Shown one piece after another: positions 3,547 through 37,644 of a stretch of 42,958 nt of DNA. Each line of letters begins with the position of its first letter. Within the stretch, counting starts at the first letter, position 1. The notes under the pieces were generated by a model. The model was not told the DNA's origin. It saw only the letters and a list, made by a program, of their open reading frames with translations, and ran no database searches. The position numbers were made by a program, and so were the translations under genes. The stretch comes from Candidatus Omnitrophota bacterium (GTDB lineage Bacteria; Omnitrophota; Gorgyraeia; Gygaellales; Profunditerraquicolaceae), in the NCBI GenBank assembly GCA_041308825.1, contig JBFZAU010000121.1, forward strand, positions 1 through 42,958, given 5' to 3'.

Positions 3547-3556
3547 ATAAAAGAGA

Positions 3557-3712
3557 ATCCCCGCAAGAGTGCCGTTGGAATGACATTCTGAACCGATTTG
3601 GCTTCAGGTGGGTGCCCTATCTAGCGGCACACGTGCCGAAAGAATAATGGGGCTCCCATGAAAATAGTGTTGGTTCAACAATTATCAAATTTCCAACGCG
3701 CACCGCAGGGAT
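3557..3712 (-). ncRNA. Candidate structured RNA: long irregular hairpin (6S-like architecture, or a structured 5' leader of rarA)
   Basis: 3557-3580 pairs with 3691-3712, giving about 20 bp interrupted by one internal loop and one bulge. An inner helix pairs 3589-3594 with 3672-3677, and local hairpins lie at 3612-3630 and 3647-3659. On the minus strand the closing helix is followed by a U-rich stretch (UCUCUUUUAU), and a promoter lies about 30 nt upstream. Confidence 0.35.
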
Positions 3713-3740
3713 ATCTAAAAGAACAATTCTATTCTAAAAA

Positions 3741-3805: not shown

Positions 3806-5836
3806 TTAACGCAGCTTAATCCCGAATTTTTCCGTTAATAAAGAACAGATGCCGTTATGCACCGGAGTAACCTCTTCCTCCGTCAACGTGCGGTTACCCT
3901 GCCGGTAGATACAGGATACGGTCAGCCCCCTAAAACCGGAAGGAATTTGCTTGCCCTGGTAGTAATCTACGATTTTAGCCAGGCTTAACAGCGGCTGGCC
4001 GCCAGAGCGGATTGCCGCGAGCATTTCACTCACCGAAAAATCTTCTGGCATCACAAAGCTGATGTCCCGGATAATCGAAGGATATTTAGGAATCTCTCTA
4101 AACCGCGTGCTTAAATTCATTGTTTCTAATAATCTTTCCAGGTTCAGCTGGGCTAAAACTACCCGGCGGTTTTTAATCTCGAAGGCTTGTAAAATCCGGG
4201 GAGTTAACTCCAAAAGAAAGCCTGCGGGTTTCTGGTTAATTACAATATTTACCCGCTGGTCTTTTCGGGCAATCAAATCAAAACTTTCAATCCCCAGCCG
4301 GCTTAACAAAGTTTCTAAAATACCTTTTAGGTGTAAAAGAGTAAATTCATCCTTGGCTAAACCGTTCTTGGTAAAAAATGACTTGGCCCCGCAGAGGGCG
4401 ATACCTAATAACGGCTCCTCTGCAACCGAATGGTTTTGACCGGAAAAAACACTGGCCACTTCAAAAAGACTCACCTGTTCCTGCTGTTGGTTTACATTAT
4501 AAGCTACGGCGCCAACCAGGCTTGGCCAAAGCGCCGGGCGTAAAACCTCCTGCTCGGTACTTAAAGGATTGGCAATCGCCACTATCCCGGTATCCTGGCT
4601 GATTTCAGATTGCTTAAGCAGGGTACGATCAACCAGGCTATAGGTAATCGCCTCATTTAAGCCTAAACCGCTTAAGATGCTTTTTATTCGGCCGATAACT
4701 TCCTGCCGATCCTGGTTTGCCATGACCGGTTTAACCGGCGGCAGAGTTTGGGTTATCCGCTCGTAACCATAAATTCTGGCTACCTCCTCAACCAGATCTA
4801 CCGGCTGCTTTAAATCCTGGCGAAAACTAGGAATGCTGACGGTGAGAACATTTTTGCTCTTAACCTTGGCGGGAAGTTCTAAGCGGTTTAAAATCTGCCT
4901 AACCTGGGTGACAGAAATTGCCGTACCTAATAATTTGTTTAAATAAACGGTTTCCAAATTAATCTTGGGGCGGGCGGTTTTAGCTGTTCCTACGTTCTTG
5001 ACTCCTGCCGGTTTGCCGCCGGCTAATTTTAAAATCATTTCCTGGGCGGCCAAAGAAGCAGCGCTAGTACCTGCTAAATCCACTCCTCTTTCAAAGCGGT
5101 AAGCGGATTCCGACTGCAACCCTAATCTTTGTTTAGTCCGGCGGACCAAAACCGGATTAAATACCGCTGATTCTAGCAGAATATTACGCGTATCAAGGGT
5201 CACCTCGGTTTCCGAGCCTCCCATAATCCCCGCAATTGCCACGGGATGATCTCTGTCTGCAATCACCAGCACCCCCGGATCCAAAACCCTATTTTGTCCA
5301 TCCAGGGTAACAAGCTTTTCTCCGGCGCGGCTGCGGCGTACTTTAATTTCCCCTTGAGGCAACTTATCTAAATCAAAAGCATGTAATGGCTGGCCCAGTT
5401 CAAACAAACAATAGTTAGTGATGTCCACAACATTGTTAATACTGCGGCAGCCTAAAGCCGCTAAACTTTTTTGCAGCCACTGCGGAGAAACACCAACCTT
5501 AAGGCCGGAAATAATCCTGGCGCTGTAAAACGGGCAGTCTTTTTTGTCGGCAACTGAAATTTTTACGGGATAAGCCGAGCCGGCCTTAGATTGAGATCCG
5601 CTAAAAACGGGACTTTTCAACTTTAACCCGTAGATGGCGCTTACCTCCCGGGCCACCCCCAGAACGCTTAACCAGTCAGGACGGTTAGAGGTAATCTCGA
5701 TCTCCAGCACAAAATCCTCTCCCTCTTTTTCCAGAGCAACAACCTCTAAACCCGCCATGGTTAGCCCCGCGGCTAAGTTTTGAGGAGAGACCCTAATATC
5801 CACAAATTTTTTTAACCAGCTATAGGTAACTTTCAT
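3806..5836 (-). CDS. pheT: Phenylalanine--tRNA ligase beta subunit (short form lacking the B2 tRNA-binding OB domain)
   Basis: N-terminus MKVTYSWLKKFVD...MAGLEV is followed directly by LEIEITSNRPDWLSVLGVAREV, then the B3/4 domain (NYCLFELGQPLHAFD) and a C-terminal FDX-ACB-like domain. It is adjacent to pheS. Confidence 0.9.
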   Translation of the reverse strand: MKVTYSWLKKFVDIRVSPQNLAAGLTMAGLEVVALEKEGEDFVLEIEITSNRPDWLSVLGVAREVSAIYGLKLKSPVFSGSQSKAGSAYPVKISVADKKDCPFYSARIISGLKVGVSPQWLQKSLAALGCRSINNVVDITNYCLFELGQPLHAFDLDKLPQGEIKVRRSRAGEKLVTLDGQNRVLDPGVLVIADRDHPVAIAGIMGGSETEVTLDTRNILLESAVFNPVLVRRTKQRLGLQSESAYRFERGVDLAGTSAASLAAQEMILKLAGGKPAGVKNVGTAKTARPKINLETVYLNKLLGTAISVTQVRQILNRLELPAKVKSKNVLTVSIPSFRQDLKQPVDLVEEVARIYGYERITQTLPPVKPVMANQDRQEVIGRIKSILSGLGLNEAITYSLVDRTLLKQSEISQDTGIVAIANPLSTEQEVLRPALWPSLVGAVAYNVNQQQEQVSLFEVASVFSGQNHSVAEEPLLGIALCGAKSFFTKNGLAKDEFTLLHLKGILETLLSRLGIESFDLIARKDQRVNIVINQKPAGFLLELTPRILQAFEIKNRRVVLAQLNLERLLETMNLSTRFREIPKYPSIIRDISFVMPEDFSVSEMLAAIRSGGQPLLSLAKIVDYYQGKQIPSGFRGLTVSCIYRQGNRTLTEEEVTPVHNGICSLLTEKFGIKLR

Positions 5837-11568: not shown

Positions 11569-13293
11569 TTATTTATGCTGTTTAACATCCTTTTCTAATT
11601 CTTGAATAAAATATGCGTACTCCAGCGGAGTCGCATACTTATCCTTATGACCTTTTTCCCGGACACTCACGGTGTTGCCTGCGGCTTCCTTTTCCCCGAC
11701 GATAAAGCAATACGGGATATTTTCCACTTCTGCCGTCCGGATTTTTTTATTCAGAGTTTCATTGCGGTTATCGATCGTTACACGCAAGCCCCTCTCAAGG
11801 CATTCTGCTTTTACCTTCTGGGCATAAGCTAACACCGATTCATTAATCGGAATGATTACAATCTGGGTTGGCGCTAACCATAAAGGTAATTTCCCTTTAT
11901 AGTTTTCGATCAATGCCCCGATAAAACGCTCCAGGCTCCCCAATAAAACCCGATGCAGCATAATCGGCTGTTGTTCTTTTCCCTCAGCATCAATGTAAGC
12001 TAAATTAAACCTTTTCGGTAAAGCAAAATCGCATTGGATCGTCGCGCATTGCCAGGTTCTTTTTAAGGCATCCTTTAATTTAATATCAATCTTGGGCCCG
12101 TAAAATGCGCCCTCTCCTTGATTAACTTCATACGCCAGGCATTTTTCTTTTAGCGCCTGTTCAAGGGCCGCGGTTGCCTTCTGCCAATCTTCATCCGAGC
12201 CGATGGATTTTTCCGGACGGGTGCTGAGTTCAATCCCCCAAGACTCAAAACCAAACACCTTCATTGTCTCAAACACAAAATCAATCACACCTTTAATTTC
12301 TGCCTCCAGCTGCTCCGGTAAACAGAAAATGTGCGCATCATCCTGGGTAAATCCGCGGACCCGCAATAGCCCGTGCAAAACCCCGGCTTTTTCCTTGCGG
12401 TAAACCGTGCCCAATTCAAAAAGCCTAACCGGCAGATCTCGATAGCTTCTAGTTTTCGATTTATAAATTAAAATATGCCCCGGGCAATTCATCGGCTTGA
12501 CCACTACCTCCTGGCCCTCCTCAGAGGTAAAATACATATTTTCTTTATAATAATCGTAGTGTCCGCTTTTTTTCCATAAACCTGCATCCATTAAATGCGG
12601 AGTCGTCACCAGGTCATAACCGCGTTTCAAATGCTCCTTTTTTTCATAGTCCTCAATAATCATCCGCAGCAGCGCGCCTTTAGGGTGATAAAATACAAAT
12701 CCTGCGCCTGCCTCTTCATGATAAATATCAAAAAGCCCTAAAGCCGGCCCCAGCTTGCGGTGATCCCGCAGCTTAGCCTCCTCTAAATTTTTCAGATGCT
12801 CATCTAATTCTTGCTGGCTTTCAAAACAGGTGCCGTAAATCCTCTGCAGCATAGGATTGGTTTCAATCCCGTGCCAATAGGCGCCGGCGACCGATAATAA
12901 TTTAAAGGCTTTGATCTGCCCGGTGGATTGAATATGCGGACCGCGGCAGAGATCCAAAAAATTTTCTCCGGTTCTATAAACCGAAATGGTTTGAGCCGGT
13001 AAACTTTCAACCAACTCTACCTTGTAATCTTCGTGATTTTTTTTAAATAGTGCCAAGGCATCCTGCTTACTCATCTCCTGCCGTAAAAAAATCTCGTTTT
13101 GGGTAATAATTTTCTGCATGACCTTCTCGATGGCCAACAAGTCCGCATCGGTAAACGGTTCCGGTTTATCAAAATCATAATAAAAACCGTCTTCAATCGC
13201 CGGGCCAATTGCTAATTTGACTTCCGGCCAAAGCTCTTTTACTGCTTGGGCCATGACATGTGAACAGGAATGCCGTAAGGTGTCGAGATCCAT
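11569..13293 (-). CDS. thrS: Threonine--tRNA ligase (lacks the N-terminal TGS domain)
   Basis: It starts at the editing domain (RHSCSHVMAQAVKELWP...AIGPAIEDGFYYDFD). Class II motifs and the anticodon-binding domain are present. Confidence 0.92.
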   Translation of the reverse strand: MDLDTLRHSCSHVMAQAVKELWPEVKLAIGPAIEDGFYYDFDKPEPFTDADLLAIEKVMQKIITQNEIFLRQEMSKQDALALFKKNHEDYKVELVESLPAQTISVYRTGENFLDLCRGPHIQSTGQIKAFKLLSVAGAYWHGIETNPMLQRIYGTCFESQQELDEHLKNLEEAKLRDHRKLGPALGLFDIYHEEAGAGFVFYHPKGALLRMIIEDYEKKEHLKRGYDLVTTPHLMDAGLWKKSGHYDYYKENMYFTSEEGQEVVVKPMNCPGHILIYKSKTRSYRDLPVRLFELGTVYRKEKAGVLHGLLRVRGFTQDDAHIFCLPEQLEAEIKGVIDFVFETMKVFGFESWGIELSTRPEKSIGSDEDWQKATAALEQALKEKCLAYEVNQGEGAFYGPKIDIKLKDALKRTWQCATIQCDFALPKRFNLAYIDAEGKEQQPIMLHRVLLGSLERFIGALIENYKGKLPLWLAPTQIVIIPINESVLAYAQKVKAECLERGLRVTIDNRNETLNKKIRTAEVENIPYCFIVGEKEAAGNTVSVREKGHKDKYATPLEYAYFIQELEKDVKQHK

Positions 13294-13702
13294 AGTTTTT
13301 TAAGCGGCTGCTTTAGCGCCTCGTTAAACCTGCCTCTACTTATATCTCCTTCGGCCTTAACTAGATATTCTATAAAGTGGCGGCCGAAGCGTTTTTTCCT
13401 GCTGCGCCTTTCTCCTTCGCGCTTAGACTGGATATTCTCTAAGGTAGCGCGCGAAGCAATTGGCGCTGCTACCGACTTTAGCGCCTCGTCTAAACTATCT
13501 AGTGTACATCGAGCTAAGCCTGGATGTTACGCTTAAGTTATATTCGAATATTGTAACGCTCGATGCAATTTTTCCTGCTGCGCAAGTAACTTGGACGCAC
13601 TCCGCTCGCTACGGAGCAACTATAACGCTTTAGCTCCCGGCTTAAACTGGAATGCCTTTTTAAAGGTAGCGCCGGGAGTAAATTTCGCTGCGCGAAATTT
13701 TA

Positions 13703-13776
13703 TGGGCCCATGAGGATTCGGACCTCAGACCTTTGCGATGTCAACGCAACGCTCTAACCAACTGAGCTATGAGCCC
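13703..13776 (-). tRNA. tRNA-Val (anticodon GAC), CCA not encoded
   Basis: GGGCTCA TA GCTC AGTTGGTTA GAGC G TTGCG TTGACAT CGCAA AGGTC TGAGG TTCGAAT CCTCA TGGGCCC A folds as a canonical cloverleaf. Confidence 0.93.
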
Positions 13777-14149
13777 TAAATTTTAATTTCCCTGCTGCGC
13801 AAGAGCGCATCGTCTAGACTATCTAGTGTACATCGAGCTAGGCCTGGATGTTACGCTTAATTAATATATACTACTCGTTTAGCGCCTCGTCTAGACTGGA
13901 TGCCTTTTTAAAGGTATCCTCGGCGTAAACCTGCTGCTACTTATAGCTCCTTTGGCCGTAAACTAAACATTCTTTAAGGAAGCGGCCGAAGCAAATGTCG
14001 CTACGCCTGGCTCCTTCGAGCTCAAACCTGTATAAATACTTATTGTATCGCTCGAAGCAATTTTGCTTGCTACGCAAGAGCGCCTCGTCTCAACTAGATG
14101 CCTTTTTAAAGGTATCCTCGGCACAAATTTCGGCAAAGCCGAAATTTAG

Positions 14150-14232
14150 TGGGCAAGAAGGGAGTCGGACCCTTACGACCTTGCGGCCAACAGATTTTAA
14201 GTCTGTCGTGTATGCCATTCCACCACTTGCCC
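14150..14232 (-). tRNA. tRNA-Leu (anticodon TAA), long variable arm, CCA not encoded
   Basis: GGGCAAG T...ACAGA CTTAAAA TCTGT, long variable arm GGCCGCAAGGTCG, T arm AAGGG TCCGACT CCCTT, acceptor CTTGCCC A. Confidence 0.9.
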
Positions 14233-14381
14233 CTAAATTTTGCGTAGCAAAATTTGCTTCCGAGTCCACCGCTAAACTCTTTCCACAGACGGACAAGGAG
14301 CTAATAGCAATTCCGCCTCGTCTAGATTGAATGCCTTTTTAAAGGTATCCTCGGCGTAATTTCCGCTGCCGCGGAAATTTA

Positions 14382-14453
14382 AGGCGACGAGCGGAATTGA
14401 ACCGCTGAATAGTTGTTTTGCAGACAACTGCCTTACCACTTGGCTACGTCGCC
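14382..14453 (-). tRNA. tRNA-Cys (anticodon GCA), discriminator U, CCA not encoded
   Basis: GGCGACG TA GCCA AGTGGTA AGGC A GTTGT CTGCAAA ACAAC TATTC AGCGG TTCAATT CCGCT CGTCGCC T. It starts 4 nt after the coaC stop. Confidence 0.92.
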
Positions 14454-14457
14454 AAAA

Positions 14458-15003
14458 TTATAATATTTTTTTAACTTCTTTTACAATCTCGGATAGCTCT
14501 GCTAAACAACCCTGTCCCATTTTCCCGCACGCCAACAGGCCTTGGCGCGGCGGAATAAATTTATAACCGCATGTTTTTAATTTCGCGATATTGCTTTGCG
14601 TAATTTTATGTTGATACATATTCTCGTTCATCGCCGGGGCAATTAAAACCTTGGCGCGGCTGGCACACACCGTACAACTTAAAAGATCATCGCAAATACC
14701 GCCGGCCAACTTGGCAATAATGTTGGCAGTAGCCGGGGCAATCAAAATTAAATCTGCCCTGGCGGCTAAAGACACGTGTTCAATCTCCCAGGCATCCGGA
14801 TCATCAAACAGGCCGCCTGAATAAACTTTCCTGCCGCTTAAGCTCTGAAATACAATCGGCCGGATCAACTCCTGCGCCTCTTGCGTCATCACCACATCTA
14901 CCGCCCAGCCGCATTCTTTGAGCTTGCGAACTAAATCACATGCCTTATAAATAGCGATGCTGGCGGTTACGCCTAAAATGATATTTTTTTGCGTATTTTT
15001 CAT
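14458..15003 (-). CDS. coaC: Stand-alone flavoprotein, phosphopantothenoylcysteine decarboxylase (CoaC domain only)
   Basis: ILGVTASIAIYKACDLVRKL, APATANIIAKLAGGICDDLL and PAMNENMYQH match the CoaC half of CoaBC. At 181 aa there is no CoaB half. Confidence 0.8.
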   Translation of the reverse strand: MKNTQKNIILGVTASIAIYKACDLVRKLKECGWAVDVVMTQEAQELIRPIVFQSLSGRKVYSGGLFDDPDAWEIEHVSLAARADLILIAPATANIIAKLAGGICDDLLSCTVCASRAKVLIAPAMNENMYQHKITQSNIAKLKTCGYKFIPPRQGLLACGKMGQGCLAELSEIVKEVKKIL

Positions 15004-18990: not shown

Positions 18991-19019
18991 TATTATCCTA
19001 AAATTAACCACTTTGTCAA
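18991..19019 (-). promoter_or_regulatory. Sigma70-like promoter for parAB
   Basis: Minus strand TTGACA (19019-19014), a 17-nt spacer, then ATAATA (18996-18991). Both parS sites fall in the predicted 5' UTR. Confidence 0.5.
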
Positions 19020-19023
19020 GCGG

Positions 19024-19215
19024 TTATTTACCTTCAATTACGCTAATGCGCACTTTTGCCGGTTTAGCGCCGGGCATACCAAATAAACCCTTCTTCTCTT
19101 CGGATAAGCTTTCGATTTTAACTTGATTGCGATTTAGTTTTAACTTCGCTAGCGCCTTCTCAATCGCCTCCTCAACCGTTTTGCCTTCTGATTCTACATA
19201 TTTGACTTTTTTCAT
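19024..19215 (-). CDS. Jag_N-domain-only protein (KhpB/Jag N-terminal homologue, 63 aa)
   Basis: GKTVEEAIEKALAKLKLNRNQVKIE...KKGLFGMPGAKPAKVRI matches the Jag N-terminal domain and sits in the canonical position after yidC. No KH or R3H domains are present. Confidence 0.7.
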   Translation of the reverse strand: MKKVKYVESEGKTVEEAIEKALAKLKLNRNQVKIESLSEEKKGLFGMPGAKPAKVRISVIEGK

Positions 19216-20741
19216 GTTTTTCTATGAATACGAGCTTGGTAAATCAACATTAGTATGCTATTAACAAACCAATAAAGCACTAATCCCGACGGCATTTGAT
19301 AAAATATTACTCCAAACATAATCGGCATAATAATTGCCATCATCTTCTGCTGCTGCGCAGCTTCACCGGTTGCCTGTGGCGAAGCCACCTTTTGTTGTAT
19401 AAACATCCCGATCGCCATTAATATTGGTAAAATATTGATCTGATTGCCTATAAAAGGAATCGAATTTTTTAACACAAACGCCTGGTCAGGAGCTGATAAA
19501 TCCTTGATCCATAAAAAATGAGCTCCTCTTAAGGCAGATGAGCGCATTAACGCCTGATATAAAGCAAAGAAAATGGGCATTTGGAGCAAAAGTGGCAAAC
19601 ATCCGCCTAAAGGATTAACTTTATGCTGACGGTACAGCTCCATGATTTCTTTATTCAATTTTTGCGGGTTATCTTTATACTCCTTACGCAGCGCCTCGAC
19701 CTTGGGTTGTACAAGCTGCATCTCCTTCATAGAGCGCATCTGCTTCATGGAAAGCGGGAACAATAAAAAATAAACCGCCATGCTTAAAATAATAATAGCT
19801 ACTCCCCAATTATGCACCAAATTAAAGAAAAACAGTAATAATTGCATTAAAATTTGCGCGATAAAGTCAAATGTCCCAAAATAAATAATCCCGGACCATT
19901 CGGGATTGATTTTATTAATTACTTTTAAATCCTGCGGCCCTAAATAGATACGCAATAAATGTCCAATCTGACCATTGGCTTGTACACTGAAACTGGGATA
20001 AATTAAACCGACCTCTGATTCATGAGGAGTGATTTTTTTAATGTATGCTTCGGTGATAATTTTGTCCGGCTCGATAATTGTACAAAAATATTGATCTCTT
20101 AAACCAAGGAACTGAATATTCCCCCTACTGAAATTTTTTCCGGGGGAAAGATGTATGGATTTTTCATTGGTTCCTAAAAATATATCCTGATACCTGGCTT
20201 GGGGATTTTTTGTAGAAAGATCCATCCGGCCTAGCACTAATTGCGGTGTTAGAGTTACTATAGAATTGGTTAAATTATAAATTATTGTTTCTAACTCTAT
20301 GTAATAGCTATCTTTAGGAATATAAAACTTCTTAATGATACGCTGATTTTTATCTTCTGCAATGAACGTAATCGATTCTTCGGTGCGGCTTTGCAGTTTA
20401 AAGGCAATCTCATTGTTCATGAGCAACCCCGCTTTTAGCGGCAATTGGTGATCTTTTCCTTCTTTGAAAAGAATCTCTATGATAGAAGCATTGGCCGGGT
20501 TAAAAACTATTTCCCGGTTTTTTTGAATAAACCGGATCGTTTCTTTGATAGGCTCCGTCTCGACCATGGCGACAGGGGATGGTAATGCCGCCGGAACGAT
20601 GCTCGACACAGCAGCGGATAGAGGAGGAGATATAGTCCTAACCTCTTGTTTACCAACTATTTGGGGCTTTGGAAACAAGACCGACCAGCCTAATAATACC
20701 AGAAGGGATAAAGCAATCGCCAACACTAAACGTTTTTCCAT
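19212..20741 (-). CDS. yidC: Membrane protein insertase YidC
   Basis: An N-terminal TM helix and a large periplasmic domain are followed by the conserved core (MRSMKEMQLVQPKVEALRKEYKDNPQKLNKEIMELYRQHKVNPLGGCLP). Confidence 0.93.
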   Translation of the reverse strand: MEKRLVLAIALSLLVLLGWSVLFPKPQIVGKQEVRTISPPLSAAVSSIVPAALPSPVAMVETEPIKETIRFIQKNREIVFNPANASIIEILFKEGKDHQLPLKAGLLMNNEIAFKLQSRTEESITFIAEDKNQRIIKKFYIPKDSYYIELETIIYNLTNSIVTLTPQLVLGRMDLSTKNPQARYQDIFLGTNEKSIHLSPGKNFSRGNIQFLGLRDQYFCTIIEPDKIITEAYIKKITPHESEVGLIYPSFSVQANGQIGHLLRIYLGPQDLKVINKINPEWSGIIYFGTFDFIAQILMQLLLFFFNLVHNWGVAIIILSMAVYFLLFPLSMKQMRSMKEMQLVQPKVEALRKEYKDNPQKLNKEIMELYRQHKVNPLGGCLPLLLQMPIFFALYQALMRSSALRGAHFLWIKDLSAPDQAFVLKNSIPFIGNQINILPILMAIGMFIQQKVASPQATGEAAQQQKMMAIIMPIMFGVIFYQMPSGLVLYWFVNSILMLIYQARIHRKT

Positions 20742-20746
20742 AAGTT

Positions 20747-20983
20747 TTATTTTAGGGGGTCATAACCTGACTTGCCTGAAAAAGGATGGCAACAAGAAAT
20801 TCTGATTATTCCCTTTAATCCTCCGTTAATTAAGCCATATTTTGTAATCGCCTGTTTTACGTATTCCGAACAGCCCGGCTCAAAACGACAGCTGGGCGGA
20901 TACAGCGGCCTTAAGTATTTTTGATACAGCCCGATCAGCTTGAGTATAAGAGTTGCCGGATTTAACCGGGAGATTACGCTCAT
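20747..20983 (-). CDS. yidD: Membrane protein insertion efficiency factor YidD
   Basis: LIGLYQKYLRPLYPPSCRFEPGCSEYVKQAITKYG. The start was set to ATG 20983, which overlaps the rpmH stop (TAATG). Confidence 0.88.
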   Translation of the reverse strand: MSVISRLNPATLILKLIGLYQKYLRPLYPPSCRFEPGCSEYVKQAITKYGLINGGLKGIIRISCCHPFSGKSGYDPLK

Positions 20984-21120
20984 TAAACGCAAAGGCGCTT
21001 TCTGCCCTTGCTCCGTCGACGGGCGAGGAGCTTGCGCCCCGCCTTCGAACTCATTTTACTGCGGAAACCGTGGCGTTTTTTACCCACGATATTGGTAGGT
21101 GTTTTTAAATTTTTCTTCAT
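20983..21120 (-). CDS. rpmH: 50S ribosomal protein L34 (below the ORF-track size cut-off)
   Basis: Manual translation gives [45 protein letters not shown], the L34 signature. Confidence 0.9.
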
Positions 21121-21175
21121 GCCCTTGTTCTCCCTTGCCTATCTCCGTATTTCAGCTTTCACGGAAGATAATAAA

Positions 21176-21184
21176 TTATCCACA
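21176..21184 (+). promoter_or_regulatory. Perfect DnaA box
   Basis: TTATCCACA, located in the predicted rpmH 5' UTR. Confidence 0.7.
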
Positions 21185-21214
21185 TTTTTAGTTGCGTGGT
21201 TTTTGATTTTGTGA

Positions 21215-21243
21215 ATTGTAACACACATTTCCCGACAGGTCAA
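21215..21243 (-). promoter_or_regulatory. Sigma70-like promoter for rpmH-yidD-yidC
   Basis: Minus strand TTGACC (21243-21238), a 17-nt spacer, then TACAAT (21220-21215). Confidence 0.5.
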
Positions 21244-21251
21244 GTTTTTTA

Positions 21252-21279
21252 TTGACGATTGTCTGTATTGTTATATAAT
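21252..21279 (+). promoter_or_regulatory. Sigma70-like promoter dnaA P1
   Basis: TTGACG, a 16-nt spacer, then TATAAT. It lies back-to-back with the rpmH promoter, with 8 bp between the two -35 elements. Confidence 0.55.
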
Positions 21280-21301
21280 AACTGACGTTTAACTTTTTTG
21301 C

Positions 21302-21329
21302 TTGCAAGGTTTTTAGTCTTTGTTATAAT
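21302..21329 (+). promoter_or_regulatory. Sigma70-like promoter dnaA P2
   Basis: TTGCAA, a 16-nt spacer, then TATAAT. The DnaA-box cluster starts about 30 nt downstream. Confidence 0.55.
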
Positions 21330-21360
21330 GGCTTTGTTCGCGCTAAGCTGGCTGTAATTT

Positions 21361-21411
21361 TTATCCACAGATTTATACAAGCTGTGTATAAACTGTGGAT
21401 TCTGTGGGCAT
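21361..21411. promoter_or_regulatory. DnaA-box cluster (oriC / dnaA autoregulatory region)
   Basis: TTATCCACA at 21361-21369 (perfect). Reverse-strand TTATACACA at 21383-21391 (1 mismatch), GAATCCACA at 21394-21402 (2 mismatches) and ATGCCCACA at 21403-21411 (3 mismatches). Together they form an imperfect palindrome of about 45 bp. Confidence 0.7.
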
Positions 21412-21509
21412 ACCAGTAACTCCTCCGGCCATCGTTAGTTAGGCGGTTACAGGGTAGATCTGCCGACGTCAAAAGCAGCTTTTTTGTACTGTATTTTCGA
21501 GAGGAAACC

Positions 21510-22847
21510 ATGTCGGAATTAATCTGCATCTGGGAAGAGACCCAAAATAATTTAAAGGCCGCGTTGGGGGATACAACCTATGCTACCTGGATTGCGCCGC
21601 TTAAGCCGCTTGCACAGGATGAGCATACAATTATCCTGCAGGCGCCGGATCAATTTTTTAAAGACTGGGTGGAAAAACATTATCTCAACCTGATTCAAGA
21701 CACCCTGAAAGCCCGCGGCTTGAATAATCTGTTGGTAAGCTTGGTTGTCAACAGCGCATTGGCCGATACAACTAATATCCCGCCGATCGCAGATTCCCTG
21801 CCTAAACCGATTACCGGTTCCGGATTTATTAATCTTAACTCGCGTTACACTTTTGAAAACTTCGTGATCGGGGGAGGTAATCGCCATGCGCACGCCTATT
21901 CTCTGGCGGTAGCCAATACCCCGGCCAAAACCTATAACCCGTTATTTATTTACGGCGGGGTCGGACTGGGCAAAACACATTTAATCCAGGCAATTTGCCA
22001 TCAGATTAAAAACAGTGTCGGTCCGAACGTTAAGATATGTTACGTATCGAGTGAGCGTTTTACCAATGAATTAATCGATGCCATTGTCCACCGCTCAACC
22101 GCCGCCTTCCGGCAGAAATATCGTAATCTGGATGTTTTGGTCATTGATGATATCCACTTTATCGCCGGCAAGGAATCAACTCAGGAAGAATTTTTCCATA
22201 CTTTCAATACTTTATATGACGCGCATAAACAAATTGTGTTTTCCTCGGATCGGCCGCCTAAAGAAATTACGAATTTACAGGAAAGGTTGGTTTCCCGGTT
22301 TGGTTGGGGGTTGGCCACCGACATCCAACCGCCTGATTTAGAAACTCGGGTCGCAATTCTTAAGAAAAAAATCGAAAGAGAGCCAGTGCAAGTCCCGGAT
22401 GAGGTTATTTTTTTTATTGCCCAGCTTATCAAAACCAATATCCGCGAATTAGAGGGAGCGTTAATCAGAACCATTGCCTATTCTTTATTAGAAGAGGCCC
22501 CGGTCACATTAGATTTAGCCAAAGAAGTACTGAAGGATTTGCTCAAAGAACCGGCTAAACTCATTACAATAGATTTTATTCAGCGCTGTGTGGTGGAAGA
22601 GTTTGGTATTTCTGTGCAAGATTTAAAAACTAAGCGGCGCAATAAACAGGTGGTTTTTCCCCGACAGGTTGCCATGTATTTAAGCCGAGAGCTTACGGAG
22701 CTGTCTTTACCGGAAATTGGTGAATTGTTTGGGGGGAAGGATCATACTACTGTATTGCATTCATATAAAAAGATCAAAGAAGACCTTTATAACAACCCTG
22801 AACTAAAAGAACGAGTGGAAAAAATTATACAAGTGATTAAACAATAG
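21510..22847 (+). CDS. dnaA: Chromosomal replication initiator protein DnaA
   Basis: AAA+ core NPLFIYGGVGLGKTHL, LVIDDIHFIAGKESTQEEFFHTFN and a C-terminal DNA-binding domain (FGGKDHTTVLHSYKKI). Confidence 0.97.
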   Translation: MSELICIWEETQNNLKAALGDTTYATWIAPLKPLAQDEHTIILQAPDQFFKDWVEKHYLNLIQDTLKARGLNNLLVSLVVNSALADTTNIPPIADSLPKPITGSGFINLNSRYTFENFVIGGGNRHAHAYSLAVANTPAKTYNPLFIYGGVGLGKTHLIQAICHQIKNSVGPNVKICYVSSERFTNELIDAIVHRSTAAFRQKYRNLDVLVIDDIHFIAGKESTQEEFFHTFNTLYDAHKQIVFSSDRPPKEITNLQERLVSRFGWGLATDIQPPDLETRVAILKKKIEREPVQVPDEVIFFIAQLIKTNIRELEGALIRTIAYSLLEEAPVTLDLAKEVLKDLLKEPAKLITIDFIQRCVVEEFGISVQDLKTKRRNKQVVFPRQVAMYLSRELTELSLPEIGELFGGKDHTTVLHSYKKIKEDLYNNPELKERVEKIIQVIKQ

Positions 22848-22908
22848 TCCCCAGTTTGTTCAGGATGGATTTTGTTAGTAAATCTTACAATAACAATAAG
22901 TTATATGT

Positions 22909-30456: not shown

Positions 30457-30542
30457 TTAATTTTAGAGGTGCTCTAGTCCTGCTTCGGCTGCGCAGGATT
30501 TCGCTAAATGTGCTTGCCTATGGCAAGCACAGGAGGGTGCTC

Positions 30543-32381
30543 ATGTGCGGGATAGTTGGATATATTGGTGCTAAAGATGGCCAATCCGTACTTTTGTCCG
30601 GCTTAAAGCGTTTGGAATACCGCGGCTATGATTCAAGCGGTATAGCATTAATCCTATCCCGCAAGAAAACCATCGGTGTCAGAAAAATCCCCGGTAAAAT
30701 AAGTGCTTTAGAAAAATTAGTTCAAGCCAAACCCTTAAGCGGTAACGTCGGTATTGCCCACACCCGCTGGGCAACCCACGGTGCCCCCAACCAGGCCAAT
30801 GCCCATCCGCATCTTGATTGCCGCGGCCAAATTGCCGTCGTCCATAACGGGATTATCGAAAACTATGAAATCCTTAAAAATCAATTGAGCAAGGAAGGGC
30901 ATATTTTTCGCAGCCAGACCGATACCGAAGTAATTGTGCACTTAATTGAAAAATTTTATAAAAATGTCCCGCTTGAGGAAGCAGTGGCTGCGGCGCTTAA
31001 GCTTTTAGTCGGTTCATTCGCGATCGGAGTAATTTCGGTACTTGAACCGAATAAATTAGTCGGAGCCCGCAGGGGGAGTCCTTTAATTATCGGTGTGGGC
31101 CGGGGTGAGAATTTTTTGGCCTCGGATGTTCCGGCGGTTTTAGGGTTTACGAAAGAAGTGGTTTTTTTGGATGAAAATGAATTGGTAGTTTTAGACCAGG
31201 AGCATTTTAAAATCAGCACCCTTGACGGCAAAACCGTTTTTAAGGCGATCACCCATATCAGTTGGGATATCGACCAGGCCCAAAAAGGGGGTTTTACGCA
31301 TTTTATGCTCAAAGAGATTAATGAGCAACCCCGGATCCTGGAAAATTTAATTAATTCCCGCATCCAAAAGAAGAGCGGAAAAATTTTCTTTCAGGAGCAG
31401 AATATTCCGGAAGCAGTGCTGAAAGAGATCAAGAGTATTTTTATTGTTGCCTGCGGTACGGCTTATCATGCGGGCTTGGTGGGTAAATATGTACTGGAAT
31501 CATTCTGCCAGCTGCCAACCCAGATCGATGTTTCCAGCGAATTCCGCTACCGGGACCTTCTGTTGGGACCGGAAACCCTGGTGATCGCGATTAGCCAATC
31601 CGGGGAGACCGCTGATACCTTGGCGGGGGTCCGGGAAGCCAAGCGGCACGGTTGCCAAGTGCTTGCGATCTGCAATGTTTTAGGTTCGACGCTTACCCGG
31701 GAGTCCGACGGGGTAATCTACACGCATGCCGGCCCGGAGATTGGGGTGGCTTCTACCAAGGCTTATACCGCCCAACTGGCAGCCTTGTATCTGTTTGCAT
31801 TTTATTTAGCGCAGATCAAAGGGGTTTTATTCAGCGCCAGAATTAATAAGCTACTGAGCGAGTTATGTAAAATTCCTCAATACCAGATCCAAATTTTAAA
31901 GCAACAGCAAAAAATCGCAACGCTTGCCCGCAAACACTCGCACTTAGGTTCGTTTTTGTATTTAGGCAGAAACGTAAATTATCCCTCCGCCCTAGAAGGG
32001 GCGCTAAAACTTAAAGAAATTTCTTATATTCCGGCGGAAGGGTATGCTGCAGGCGAAATGAAGCATGGCCCGATTGCGTTAATTGATGAATACCGGGCCG
32101 TAGTCTGTATCGTGCCCGCCTCCAAAGTTTATGACAAGATGGTCTCTAATATCCAAGAGATCCGTTCCCGTAAAGGTAAAATTATCGCCGTGGCCACCGC
32201 CGGGGATGCAGAGATCCGGGAATTAACCCGGGAAGTAATTTACGTACCCTCAACCGAAGAAGTTTTTTCTCCGCTGTTAGTGGCGCTGCCCTTACAATTA
32301 ATGGCTTATCATATTGCGGTTAAGCGCGGCTGTGATGTGGATCAGCCCCGCAATTTGGCCAAGTCTGTCACCGTAGAATAA
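30543..32381 (+). CDS. glmS: Glutamine--fructose-6-phosphate aminotransferase (isomerizing)
   Basis: MCGIVGYIG with the Cys nucleophile at position 2, two SIS domains and the C-terminal DQPRNLAKSVTVE. The start was moved to ATG 30543, which follows AGGAGG. Confidence 0.96.
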   Translation: MCGIVGYIGAKDGQSVLLSGLKRLEYRGYDSSGIALILSRKKTIGVRKIPGKISALEKLVQAKPLSGNVGIAHTRWATHGAPNQANAHPHLDCRGQIAVVHNGIIENYEILKNQLSKEGHIFRSQTDTEVIVHLIEKFYKNVPLEEAVAAALKLLVGSFAIGVISVLEPNKLVGARRGSPLIIGVGRGENFLASDVPAVLGFTKEVVFLDENELVVLDQEHFKISTLDGKTVFKAITHISWDIDQAQKGGFTHFMLKEINEQPRILENLINSRIQKKSGKIFFQEQNIPEAVLKEIKSIFIVACGTAYHAGLVGKYVLESFCQLPTQIDVSSEFRYRDLLLGPETLVIAISQSGETADTLAGVREAKRHGCQVLAICNVLGSTLTRESDGVIYTHAGPEIGVASTKAYTAQLAALYLFAFYLAQIKGVLFSARINKLLSELCKIPQYQIQILKQQQKIATLARKHSHLGSFLYLGRNVNYPSALEGALKLKEISYIPAEGYAAGEMKHGPIALIDEYRAVVCIVPASKVYDKMVSNIQEIRSRKGKIIAVATAGDAEIRELTREVIYVPSTEEVFSPLLVALPLQLMAYHIAVKRGCDVDQPRNLAKSVTVE

Positions 32382-37377: not shown

Positions 37378-37431
37378 AATGATGCCCCTGCCCTTAGATA
37401 AACTTAGGGAGGGGATTGGGTTAAATTAAAT

Positions 37432-37503
37432 GCCCCTGTAGCGCAATGGATAGCGCATTAGCCTCCGGAGCTAATGGTACAGGTTCGACTCCTGTCAGGG
37501 GCA
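37432..37503 (+). tRNA. tRNA-Arg (anticodon CCG), CCA not encoded
   Basis: GCCCCTG TA GCGC AATGGATA GCGC A TTAGC CTCCGGA GCTAA TGGT ACAGG TTCGACT CCTGT CAGGGGC A. Confidence 0.92.
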
Positions 37504-37644
37504 AAATTTAAAAATAAACAAAAGTGGAGTAGAATAGCATAAAATAAGCTAAAATTATAGTATTTATAGATAATTATACCCAAAATTGTTGCATTTTATG
37601 GCTAAAAGTGGAGTAATGAAATACTTAAATAGGAGCTTTAGATT

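Follow-up and report, generated by a model that had tools for sequence, protein, structure and literature searches.

A two-hairpin module at the 3' ends of tRNA genes in Omnitrophota, expanded in the tRNA cluster preceding thrS

Short imperfect palindromes lying in intergenic space just past the 3' ends of genes are known from the RAYT-associated REP, BIME and REPIN sequences of Proteobacteria, which may form clusters of mixed orientation, resemble one another within a genome and fold as RNA if transcribed. BOX elements of Streptococcus pneumoniae, also noncoding, combine sub-modules in varying number and order and are predicted to form stable hairpins. A second set of parallels comes from stable-RNA transcripts: the sponge RNAs 3'ETS-leuZ and ITS metZ-metW of E. 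coli come from transcribed trailers or spacers of tRNA operons, while the RNAs of plant tRNA-snoRNA genes and mascRNA, released by RNase Z and RNase P, have ends set by tRNA-processing enzymes. Integrative elements, finally, use att sites directly 3' of tRNA genes.

The module described here, from a Candidatus Omnitrophota contig, resembles each of these in part. Unlike REP-type sequences it lacks a GTAG/CGTC tag (GTAG occurs in some loops of its first hairpin only), has no RAYT gene in its neighborhood, and comprises two hairpins with a conserved tandem G.A core; REP-type sequences are spread over mRNA 3' UTRs, whereas the module is anchored 0-3 nt from tRNA 3' ends. BOX elements share no sequence similarity with it and are dispersed near ordinary genes, not tied to stable-RNA 3' ends. 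The tRNA-operon spacer RNAs work through base-pairing and lack a conserved two-hairpin fold; release of the module, with ends that would likewise be set by tRNA-processing enzymes, is a prediction here. As with att sites, additions have been made directly 3' of tRNA genes with older units displaced downstream (module A2 lies between tRNA-Leu and the H1 remnant of unit D2, listed below), some copies lie in accessory regions and, in one relative (L142), the 3' end of 5S rRNA is duplicated around an insert; but duplicated tRNA 3' fragments are absent from the locus and no integrase was found. The pyrimidine-GA-purine context of the core (5'-CGAG/5'-CGAG) is one that favors sheared geometry in tandem G.A pairs.

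At gathering threshold, Rfam searches of the window (the whole stretch of DNA analysed, 42,958 nt) and 21 related loci returned only tRNA, 6S, rRNA and RNase P; T-box, L20-leader, other leaders, ribozymes and known tRNA-linked motifs gave no Rfam 15 match reaching threshold. At E<=10 the interval of interest yielded tRNAs only, the best other model (L31-leader, E=0.054) falling below threshold. The first-pass annotation had recognised no known RNA family here, and the Rfam search that it called for agrees. The literature searched mentions no such element for Omnitrophota, and the two-hairpin module is apparently undescribed so far.

The tRNA cluster and its repeat units

The interval 13294-14457 (1.16 kb) is the conserved Omnitrophota tRNA-Cys/tRNA-Leu/tRNA-Val cluster preceding thrS. 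It is bounded by the start of thrS (13293, minus strand) and by a flavoprotein (CoaC-like) ORF, in the following order:

14458-15003, minus strand: flavoprotein (CoaC-like) gene, upstream of the tRNA cluster; rpoZ, gmk and yicC precede it
14382-14453, minus strand: tRNA-Cys(GCA), found by ARAGORN and Rfam (tRNA, 69.8 bits); leads the conserved Cys-Leu-Val cluster
14149-14232, minus strand: tRNA-Leu(UAA), found by ARAGORN and Rfam
13703-13776, minus strand: tRNA-Val(GAC), found by ARAGORN and Rfam
11569-13293, minus strand: thrS, downstream of the tRNA cluster; followed by infC, rpmI and rplT

The order Cys-Leu-Val-thrS is common to ~70 species among related thrS loci, where the cluster spans anything from 260-290 nt (L018, L019, L020, L038, L046, L077) to more than 2 kb, compared to 1160 nt here; in compact relatives thrS starts 5-25 nt past tRNA-Val. 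That the island is an expanded form of a conserved, normally compact tRNA cluster had escaped the first-pass annotation, which was right that the gap contains no credible ORF: the longest (111 aa), on the strand opposite to tRNA-Leu and overlapping it, has no Pfam match. The 43-kb window is housekeeping DNA surrounding oriC. No transposase or RAYT gene is found among its ORFs, and the tRNA strand carries no terminator-like site between 13000 and 14500.

The length of the cluster is due to intact, inverted, and truncated or mosaic copies of the module. Its first hairpin, H1, begins 0-3 nt past the tRNA discriminator base; the stem is perfectly paired, AU-rich but topped by a few G-C pairs, and closes on a GNA, GNRA or UUU loop. 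The second, H2, is a ~45-nt hairpin whose archetype consists of a basal helix (N-x-C-C / G-G-x'-N'), a tandem G.A/A.G in 5'-CGAG/5'-CGAG context above it, and then a G-C pair. A repeat search detected 17 direct-repeat families in the island. Three unit motifs occur there 4, 5 and 6 times, against 0.01, 0.04 and 1.5 occurrences expected across the whole window; outside the island the window holds only two weak matches, each with three mismatches and both to the third motif. As assembled, the island comprises four intact modules, one inverted module and six to eight truncated or mosaic copies (R1 and R2 are the covariance models discussed below; z is the fold z-score):

14312-14381, minus strand: intact module A3, 0 nt past tRNA-Cys; H1 14358-14379, H2 14313-14356 (CGCC GAGGAUACCU...GACGAGG GCG); R1 69.1 bits, E 2e-16; z -3.19
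14233-14302, plus strand: inverted, partly decayed module adjoining the 5' end of tRNA-Leu, which is on the opposite strand; H1 14236-14254, H2 14256-14302 (CUUCCGAG UCCACC...GGAC AAGGAG); R1 26.2 bits and R2 38.1 bits, plus strand; z -2.47
14079-14148, minus strand: intact module A2, 0 nt past tRNA-Leu; H1 14126-14146, H2 14079-14123, outer pair U.G on the tRNA-sense strand; R1 62 bits
14014-14078, minus strand: unit D2; H1 remnant 14058-14078 (3' part of a hairpin kept whole in L081), all-Watson-Crick H2 14014-14057 (CUUCGAGC/GCUCGAAG); weak R2 match at 14012-14064; 80% identical to a hybrid unit of L172
13950-14013, minus strand: unit C2; linker 13992-14013, H2 13950-13991 with a single C.A mismatch on the sense strand (G.T on the plus strand)
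13881-13949, minus strand: unit A1; degenerate H1 13926-13949, intact A-type H2 13881-13925 (91% identical to A2 as well as A3); R1 47 bits
13804-13867, minus strand: unit B2; B-type stem-loop truncated 5' and joined to an A-type 3' tail (…AGACGAUGCG)
13777-13803, minus strand: H1-like remnant or linker immediately 5' of tRNA-Val
13632-13702, minus strand: intact module A4, 0 nt past tRNA-Val; H1 13681-13699, all-Watson-Crick H2 13634-13678 (CUCCCGGC/GCCGGGAG); R1 33.6 bits, R2 51.6 bits; z -4.25
13590-13631, minus strand: remnant of a second module type (…CUCCGUAGCGAGCGGAGUGCG…), recognised by reading the sequence; this type, which also has CGAG repeats, is whole after tRNA-Val in L007, L014, L023, L027 and L050 and partial in L172
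13480-13589, minus strand: unit B1; H1 remnant 13566-13586, branched stem-loop 13507-13565 (CAUCGAGC/GCUCGAUG), A-type 3' tail 13480-13506; B-type orthologues sit after tRNA-Leu in L081 and L082
13415-13479, minus strand: unit D1; linker 13457-13479, H2 13415-13456 (CUUCGCGC/GCGCGAAG)
13349-13414, minus strand: unit C1; linker 13390-13414, H2 13349-13389 (CUUCGGCC/GGCCGAAG)
13311-13348, minus strand: A-type unit with a 35-nt internal deletion, retaining the A1 flanks only

This inventory of about a dozen full or broken copies agrees with the earlier description of an island of diverged modular stem-loops: every stem then listed is correctly placed, and the B units, put at about 90% identity, measure 92%. 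The size of the unit had been underestimated, the real unit being the two-hairpin module, and the supposed ~20-nt linkers are actually H1 or truncated H1 remnants. Nor have the A-type copies lost their outer stem, as had been thought; they retain four Watson-Crick pairs followed by G.A, A.G and G-C. Far from being degenerate, they match a form conserved in at least 13 other contigs, and represent the conserved archetype because the hallmark of the family is the CCGAG...CGAGG core, that is, a tandem G.A in the basal helix.

Comparison of the copies shows that the island grew via segmental duplication, internal deletion and one inversion. The unit at 13311-13348 together with C1 and D1 is colinear with A1-C2-D2, ~600 nt apart (spacing 599-601; one repeat pair 86% identical), and around tRNA-Leu an inverted repeat runs from the acceptor stem into both flanks. 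Duplicated tRNA fragments and att-type tRNA 3' ends are absent from the island. Such a structure could be neutral debris – repeated local duplication of tRNA flanks followed by decay, with the arms matched not by selection but by quasi-palindrome correction at the DNA level (intrastrand template switching) – a reading we consider improbable. The A-C-D order present twice, the near identity of B1 and B2, the inverted repeat at tRNA-Leu, the truncations, the 35-nt deletion and the mosaic units all accord with it, but conservation of orthologous modules well exceeds the neutral level, and unrelated contigs repeat this architecture at different tRNAs. A4 and its L081 orthologue are identical at 69 of 71 positions, whereas in thrS the same pair agrees at 75% of fourfold-type third codon positions; C1 and C2 each share 86% identity with the only C unit of L172, with thrS third positions at 58%. 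As judged from these alignments, the copy after tRNA-Val (at least) evolves far slower than synonymous sites.

The least probable explanation of all is an assembly artefact, either a repeat-induced chimera or a mis-joined contig. The contig is metagenome-assembled, and that of the closest relative breaks inside the island (L081 starts within tRNA-Leu); the module repeats themselves may be the reason why the closest relative's contig ends there. Confusion of the assembler is nevertheless unlikely with units this short (40-70 nt), most of them sharing 50-90% identity. Moreover, three independent assemblies of relatives (L081, L082, L172) have the same module types at the same places, and the C1/C2 duplication is old, since each copy is equally close to the one L172 unit.

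The module family and its genomic positions

The covariance models R1 and R2 were used to search related thrS loci (n=82; ~1 Mb) and metagenome contigs. In the window they recover A3, A2, A1, A4 and the inverted copy; elsewhere, modules are found in 16 of the 82 loci and in ~13 metagenome contigs. Together at least 25 other Omnitrophota loci or contigs carry the module, the outcome of a search beyond the window that the first-pass annotation had proposed. Matches begin between -2 and +3 nt from a same-strand tRNA 3' end in 24 of 35 cases, or in 26 of 35 after correction for L058, which overlaps its tRNA by 4 nt, and L158, where the upstream tRNA is cut at the contig end. The model matches thus show a family found in many Omnitrophota and sense-oriented at the 3' ends of tRNA genes; neither its spread nor this anchoring had been noticed before. 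A blastn-short comparison of the island with 80 related thrS loci gave matches in the tRNAs only, homology being visible solely through motifs and covariance models. A scan of viral contigs gave a single match, a chance hit in GC-rich coding sequence, as likewise were ~75 of 88 metagenome pattern matches. A generic regular expression for GA-core hairpins was abandoned because it was too permissive (0.33/kb in spacers vs 0.16/kb elsewhere).

The anchoring tRNAs are Cys, Leu-UAA, Val-GAC, Ile-GAU (inside the 16S-23S spacer) and Met-CAU, and a single copy is located after 5S rRNA. The module is found between co-oriented tRNAs and in the 16S-23S spacer, the location expected of tRNA-operon spacer RNAs, with as little as 7-17 nt between the end of H2 and the next tRNA gene. 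This range of positions bears on a possible role as cis-regulatory leader, whereby the thrS-infC-rpmI-rplT operon would be controlled by autoregulation (ThrRS or L20) or by attenuation. The module does lie directly between tRNA-Val and thrS in the window and in L001, L003, L011, L049, L058, L071, L081 and L152; however, it also follows tRNA-Cys, Leu, Ile (rRNA spacer) and Met and 5S rRNA without such an operon next to it, and in many species only 5-25 nt separate tRNA-Val and thrS. With no T-box, L20-leader or other leader match in Rfam, no terminator, and no mimic of the tRNA-Thr anticodon loop in the window units, a leader is very unlikely.

Throughout ~1 Mb of related DNA and the 43-kb window, matches occur almost only in tRNA clusters. 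At the thrS locus the module is missing from ~80% of related species, including all those with compact clusters, and is therefore dispensable. Most genomes have one to three copies and no array. Some copies follow terminator-like hairpins in accessory regions beside HicAB, ORF6N, KAP NTPase and LAGLIDADG genes, and three copies away from tRNAs have a long terminator-like H1. Intact cores inverted, and so antisense to the tRNA transcript, are present in L074, L017 (twice) and L071; the inverted arrangement at the 5' end of tRNA-Leu is also seen in L074 and L017. Loops specific to a lineage recur among the copies of a genome, and even relatives that are 93% identical differ in copy number. Patchy copy number combined with lineage-shared loops is behavior typical of repeat DNA.

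The main rival to a functional RNA is accordingly a selfish repeat of REP/BIME or MITE type, a possibility that we hold to be real but clearly short of probable: a strand-specific ssDNA hairpin, mobilised in trans by an HUH/Y1-type or other enzyme, would insert preferentially by hairpin-forming stable-RNA 3' ends and terminators, RNA folding being a side effect. Patchy presence between species and rapid turnover of copy number speak for it, as do intact cores in both orientations, the likeness of copies within a genome, the occurrence of some in accessory regions, and sub-families common to several species (L071, L074 and the inverted copy of the window, for instance, have the UCCGCC/GGCGGA helix in common). 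In L142 the final 18 nt of 5S rRNA are present twice, once on each side of an insert with H2. C-GNA-G triloops and Y-GA-R tandem G.A pairs are, furthermore, very stable in DNA hairpins too, so that both motifs of the module would suit a DNA element. Against this, the 43-kb window encodes no transposase or RAYT, and the conserved GTAG/CGTC tag is absent. Comparison of the filled tRNA-Leu site of the window with the unfilled site of L081 reveals neither terminal inverted repeats nor a target-site duplication after tRNA-Leu, the features of a MITE, and the island has no duplicates of tRNA fragments. Restriction of matches almost entirely to tRNA clusters, and an orthologous copy 97% conserved vs 75% at neutral sites, are unexpected for inert selfish DNA.

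A protein-sponge RNA of, for example, the CsrA/Rsm type, presenting many GGA motifs on a multi-hairpin transcript, is less probable even than a leader. AGGA is indeed found on the sense strand of most units (GAAGGAG at the 3' base of stem types; GAGGAUA in A-type), but GGA is not conserved across the family, in which the CCGAG...CGAGG core is followed by G, A or C. It lies mostly within helices, not loops, an array is lacking in most genomes, with their one to three copies, and the window contains no CsrA gene.

Covariation and the structure-bearing strand

Compensatory stem changes, already pointed out from the window alone, are real both there and among homologues. In the six stem-type units of the window 47 of 48 pairs are Watson-Crick, and five of the eight stem positions vary yet stay compensated; when the arms of these units were re-paired, only 2 of 720 pairings equaled the observed one. 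In an alignment of ~40 homologues 95.4% of cells are paired, compared to 79.4% in shuffles (0 of 500 shuffles reach the observed value) and 25-59% in slid registers. Both-sided changes affect 14 of 17 pairs, and the second outer pair of P1 occurs as U-A, C-G, G-C and A-U. Fold z-scores of the units range from -1.3 to -4.4.

The covariation is to be read with caution in one respect: perfect pairing has repeatedly taken the place of the G.A core in this lineage, so that in most copies this part of the H2 helix is now fully Watson-Crick. Correction of palindromes at the DNA level could yield such a pattern without selection on RNA, and neutral debris gains here in that many stems of the lineage are perfect palindromes whose 3' arm is the exact complement of the CGAG-bearing 5' arm (D2, B1, L082). 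Template switching would, however, erase G.A mismatches, yet these persist across deeply diverged species.

The hallmark core also identifies the strand. Purine-purine G.A pairs exist only on the tRNA-sense strand (the other has C.U/U.C), and on this sequence criterion the structure-bearing strand is the tRNA-sense strand, contrary to the earlier suggestion of a folding strand antisense to the tRNAs. Wobble pairs show no clear strand bias (13 G.U vs 8 A.C). Folding energy favors the sense strand in 24 of 38 units, a weak difference averaging 0.9 kcal/mol, and window copies in which perfect pairing replaces the G.A core fold slightly better on the plus strand.

Several described motifs were considered and set aside. 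A-type copies can be threaded on a K-turn (C stem, GAG bulge, GA/GA), but the family is neither K-turn nor box C/D because distant members (L071, L058, L074) have a symmetric 2x2 loop without the 3-nt bulge. H1 is not an intrinsic terminator, its AU-rich stems lacking a U tract and the tRNA strand at 13000-14500 lacking any terminator-like site. The units, 50-90% identical, are not regularly arranged around unique spacers as in a CRISPR array, and there are no cas genes in the window. L152 contains CUGACGAG, but the GAAA element and cleavage stem of a hammerhead are missing and Rfam gives no match. Mimicry of the 16S 3' end or anti-SD (GGAUACCU against GGAUCACCU) lacks the CCUCC core, and the -35-like TTGAC within H2, considered as part of a promoter, has no matching -10 after it and does not occur in the window copies.

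Possible role of the module

The reading we favor, with evenly divided confidence, is that stable-RNA operons carry the module as a structured RNA element of their 3' trailers or spacers; among the roles first proposed, two still lead, namely modules for the processing or insulation of a polycistron, and duplication of tRNA flanks. The module would be transcribed as 3' trailer or spacer of a polycistronic rpoZ-coaC-tRNA-thrS precursor; the island with no terminator-like site, and the start of thrS so close to tRNA-Val in compact relatives, are compatible with co-transcription. Its two autonomous hairpins would keep neighboring tRNAs and the 5' end of thrS from mispairing. They may also mark the ends of what RNase Z and RNase P produce, in which case cleavage on both sides of a module flanked by tRNAs would free an RNA of ~70-85 nt, while the G.A platform of H2 would serve as a recognition surface, probably for protein. 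Extra copies would be by-products of duplication, persisting because each folds independently without terminating transcription. A function as sense RNA leaves the inverted intact cores (L074, L017 twice, L071) unexplained.

A bolder proposal, which we offer tentatively, is that H1-H2 represents an unrecognised class of element coupled to the stable-RNA 3' boundary of Omnitrophota. As RNA, it would be a discrete small RNA of ~70-85 nt, cut by RNase Z and RNase P and forming an RNP through the tandem-G.A helix. As DNA, it would be a non-autonomous hairpin element homing to tRNA and 5S 3' ends, guided by structure. Such homing could account for junctions of 0-3 nt being found at six different tRNA genes, and for the mirrored copies that adjoin tRNA-Leu at its 5' end, acceptor-stem sequence being the terminus of the bottom strand there as well.

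With this module, an uncultivated phylum of which little is known gains a structured element that is conserved, covaries and is apparently undescribed; the R1 and R2 covariance models allow its annotation elsewhere. The module accounts for the roughly eight-fold variation in length of an otherwise compact, conserved locus. Strict placement at tRNA 3' ends (once at 5S rRNA) is uncommon among bacterial repeats, and the anchoring points either to an unknown step in the 3' maturation or protection of stable RNA, or to a new mechanism by which small repeats are targeted.

Gene context and composition of the island

The window belongs to a Candidatus Omnitrophota genome, and the ThrRS it encodes is at most 78% identical to that of any species representative in the genome collection; its nearest relatives, found in metagenome protein sets, are 93%, 89%, 89%, 86% and 85% identical. 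All genes at the site lie on the minus strand, in the order parA, parB, ndk, yicC, gmk, rpoZ, flavoprotein gene (CoaC-like), tRNA-Cys(GCA), tRNA-Leu(UAA), tRNA-Val(GAC), thrS, infC, rpmI and rplT. The island is the 1164-nt gap between the flavoprotein gene and thrS: examination of its ORFs revealed no credible one, as the first-pass annotation had stated, and the Rfam search proposed there returned only the three tRNAs, even at E≤10. The order Cys-Leu-Val-thrS is kept in about 70 related species, with the span from tRNA-Cys to thrS ranging from 260–290 nt to more than 2 kb. Where the flavoprotein gene ends, directly ahead of tRNA-Cys, there is a promoter-like site (14457-14486, minus strand; TTGTAA, 18 nt, TATAAT; 10 of 12 matches); with no more than 3 nt separating its -10 hexamer from the tRNA, it is of doubtful function.

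Elsewhere, the window carries the chromosomal replication origin region (19000-22900): cumulative GC skew reaches its minimum at ~19-21 kb, and yidC (19212-20741, minus) and dnaA (21510-22847, plus) diverge over a 768-nt AT-rich gap. This gap has perfect DnaA boxes (TTATCCACA) at 21176 and 21361, plus a third box at 21383 that differs at one position. Downstream of dnaA come dnaN, gyrB and gyrA, while parA and parB occupy 18933-17187. A 6S RNA gene (3554-3714, minus; Rfam, 64.4 bits) stands between pheT and an mgsA-like gene, and 6S RNA is also present in related loci L003 and L017.

A repeat search of the interval yielded 17 direct-repeat families. The island contains 4 to 6 occurrences of each of three unit motifs, whereas chance would give 0.01 to 1.5 across the entire window; the only matches outside the island are two weak ones (three mismatches), both to the third motif. 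Misassembly is a less likely source of these repeats. The stems listed by the first-pass annotation were recovered, with 47 of 48 pairs Watson-Crick over six stem-type units, and the compensatory changes it described are real: five of eight stem positions vary, every variant is compensated, and only 2 of 720 arm re-pairings score equally well. Most units fold better than shuffled controls (z-scores -1.3 to -4.4). Neutral decay accompanied by palindrome correction is a less likely account of this pairing.

Architecture and strand of the module

Read on the tRNA-sense (minus) strand, the unit's linker, so named in the first-pass annotation, proves to be a hairpin, H1, or a truncated H1; the stem-loop already described follows it as a second hairpin, H2. 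H1 pairs perfectly and is rich in A and U, as in AAAUUUCGC-GCA-GCGAAAUUU. Apart from four intact copies, those in the island are truncated.

Mapped module features of the island (window coordinates)
13681-13699, intact H1 directly after a tRNA
14126-14146, intact H1 directly after a tRNA
14358-14379, intact H1 directly after a tRNA
14236-14254, one further intact H1
14233-14302, plus strand, inverted module adjoining the 5' end of tRNA-Leu (same arrangement in L074 and L017)
13590-13631, remnant of a second module type

The consensus consists of three helices. H1 spans 8–10 bp; H2 has a basal helix, P1, in which N-x-C-C pairs with G-G-x'-N', and an inner helix, P2, which is ACCU/AGGU in A-type copies and differs in sequence in distant members. 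The two H2 helices are separated by a 5'-CGAG/5'-CGAG core that gives G.A, A.G, then G-C. In a 40-sequence alignment fitted to the model, which favours structure, 95.4% of cells are paired, compared with 79.4% after shuffling; 14 of the 17 pairs carry changes in both partners, none of 500 shuffles reaches the observed pairing, and slid registers are 25–59% paired; a MAFFT-based alignment agrees.

The first-pass annotation had hinted at a folding strand antisense to the tRNAs. Across the family, the data lend this no support: the G.A core is purine-purine on the tRNA-sense strand only, and wobble pairs show no strand bias (13 G.U vs 8 A.C). On the same grounds A-type copies A1-A3 are the family archetype: far from having lost their outer stem, they retain four Watson-Crick pairs plus G.A, A.G and G-C. 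Stem-type copies (A4, C1, D1, C2, D2, B1) carry perfect pairs in place of the G.A part and are homologous to A-type copies over the entire H2; in D2, B1 and the unit of L082 (the 85%-identical relative) the 5' arm is still CGAG and the 3' arm is now its exact complement.

Linkage to stable-RNA 3' ends

Plain BLAST detected nothing common to the spacers of related loci. Inspection by eye and with a regular expression revealed the same H1+H2 module in three loci following tRNA-Val (L001, L003, L011) and in one following tRNA-Cys (L017), and a scan of metagenome contigs for CCGAGGATACCT...GACGAGGNG gave ~13 true modules among chance matches in coding sequence. Covariance models (R1, R2) built from modules of related loci and metagenome contigs matched five window copies and modules in 16 of 82 thrS loci. 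In 24 of 35 matches the module starts at an offset of -2 to +3 nt relative to the 3' terminus of a tRNA on the same strand; accepting an overlap of 4 nt in one case and a tRNA cut by the contig end in another adds two more. The tRNAs concerned are Cys, Leu-UAA, Val-GAC, Met-CAU and Ile-GAU, the last within the 16S-23S spacer, and one copy follows 5S rRNA. The modules thus form one conserved two-hairpin family that shows covariation, is linked to stable-RNA 3' ends and, in this island, has multiplied through local duplication.

The model search found no module at the window's tRNA-Glu or tRNA-Arg (37431-37504). The tRNA-Glu 3' flank (30457-30545) contains two hairpins, UCCUGC...GCAGGA and GUGCUUGCC-UAUG-GCAAGCAC, then an SD-like AGGAGG and the glmS start; these hairpins are not H1-H2 modules.

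Further structured elements occur at related loci. A four-way-junction element of ~95-125 nt, absent from the window and without an Rfam match, lies just 5' of tRNA-Val in relatives. Its opening segment duplicates the 5'-most 15 nt of tRNA-Val, and the pair GCUCAUAGC/GCUAUGAGC closes it; the arms are variable but still paired, and a UUGGU stretch is conserved.

Four-way-junction elements in related loci
L002, 3502-3599
L008, 5811-5908
L012, ~5380-5480
L014, 5592-5690 and 5703-5814
L025, 5806-5898
L037, 4335-4461
L152, 290-399

Free-standing ORFs for endonucleases of LAGLIDADG type are found in L005 (5094-5792) and L014 (4691-5496, preceded by a ~120-nt structured region), in both cases between tRNA-Cys and tRNA-Leu, and in L142 (5362-5895) between 23S and 5S; only the last has a Pfam LAGLIDADG_1 match, the others being judged on sequence alone.

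Growth, conservation and possible role

The A-remnant/C1/D1 segment (13311-13479) is colinear with A1/C2/D2 (13877-14078) at an offset of 599-601 nt, the remnant lacking 35 internal nt found in A1. B1 and B2, 324 nt apart and put at about 90% identity in the first-pass annotation, are 92% identical, and both have A-type 3' tails. The second module type, intact after tRNA-Val in L007, L014, L023, L027 and L050 and partly present at L172 1-40, follows its own H1-like hairpin and reads GGCACUC-AAGCGAGCG-hairpin-UAGCGAGCG-GAGUGCC, with paired CGAG motifs (GCGAGCG on either side of the hairpin); it may belong to the same superfamily. Comparison with L081 shows one additional module in the window, A2, whose insertion separates tRNA-Leu from an older H1 and left no target duplication at the junction. 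The tRNA-Val-to-thrS spacer measures 409 nt in the window and 89 nt in L081, where it comprises H1, A4 and 18 nt more. In L082 a 275-aa ORF without a significant Pfam match (1995-2822) is inserted in this spacer. That the modules serve as a thrS leader is less likely.

The A4 module, which follows tRNA-Val, is identical to that of L081 at 69 of 71 positions, against 75% for fourfold-type third positions of thrS. C1 does resemble C2, as noted earlier (79% identity), yet each is closer to the single C unit of L172 (86%), where thrS third positions are 58% identical. The modules thus evolve more slowly than neutral sites, and the C-unit duplication is old.

In L142 (4559-4758) and L084 (~4476-4674), a second copy of the 3'-terminal 17-18 nt of the 5S gene is present ~165 nt further downstream. 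Between the copies is a hairpin-rich insert, which has an A-type H2 in L142, as if an insertion had duplicated the 3' end of a stable-RNA gene. The flanked L142 insert would suit a REP-like DNA element, as would the patchy distribution across species, inverted copies with intact cores, the likeness of copies within one genome and the presence of some in accessory regions. Against it, orthologous copies are conserved above the neutral level, the window contains no transposase, neither terminal inverted repeats nor a target duplication were seen, and the island has no tRNA-fragment duplicates; we regard such an element as the main rival to an RNA role, but the less likely of the two.

Unlike the family, its covariation and its 3'-end linkage, which are observed, its role is something we infer: there is an even chance that the module acts as RNA. 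It would then be a self-folding trailer or spacer within polycistronic precursors, possibly set free by RNase Z and RNase P, whose G.A helix could be a recognition surface. The sense orientation of most copies, their presence in spacers that must be transcribed and the lack of terminators in the island are consistent with an RNA module; a CsrA-type sponge is less likely. Rfam 15 has no family matching the module in the window or related loci, and the literature searched, including the main Omnitrophota genomics paper, described nothing like it. Both structured intergenic repeats and tRNA spacers with a function are established kinds of element; new here are the strict anchoring to tRNA 3' ends, the pairing of H1 with H2 in one module, and the core of tandem G.A pairs.
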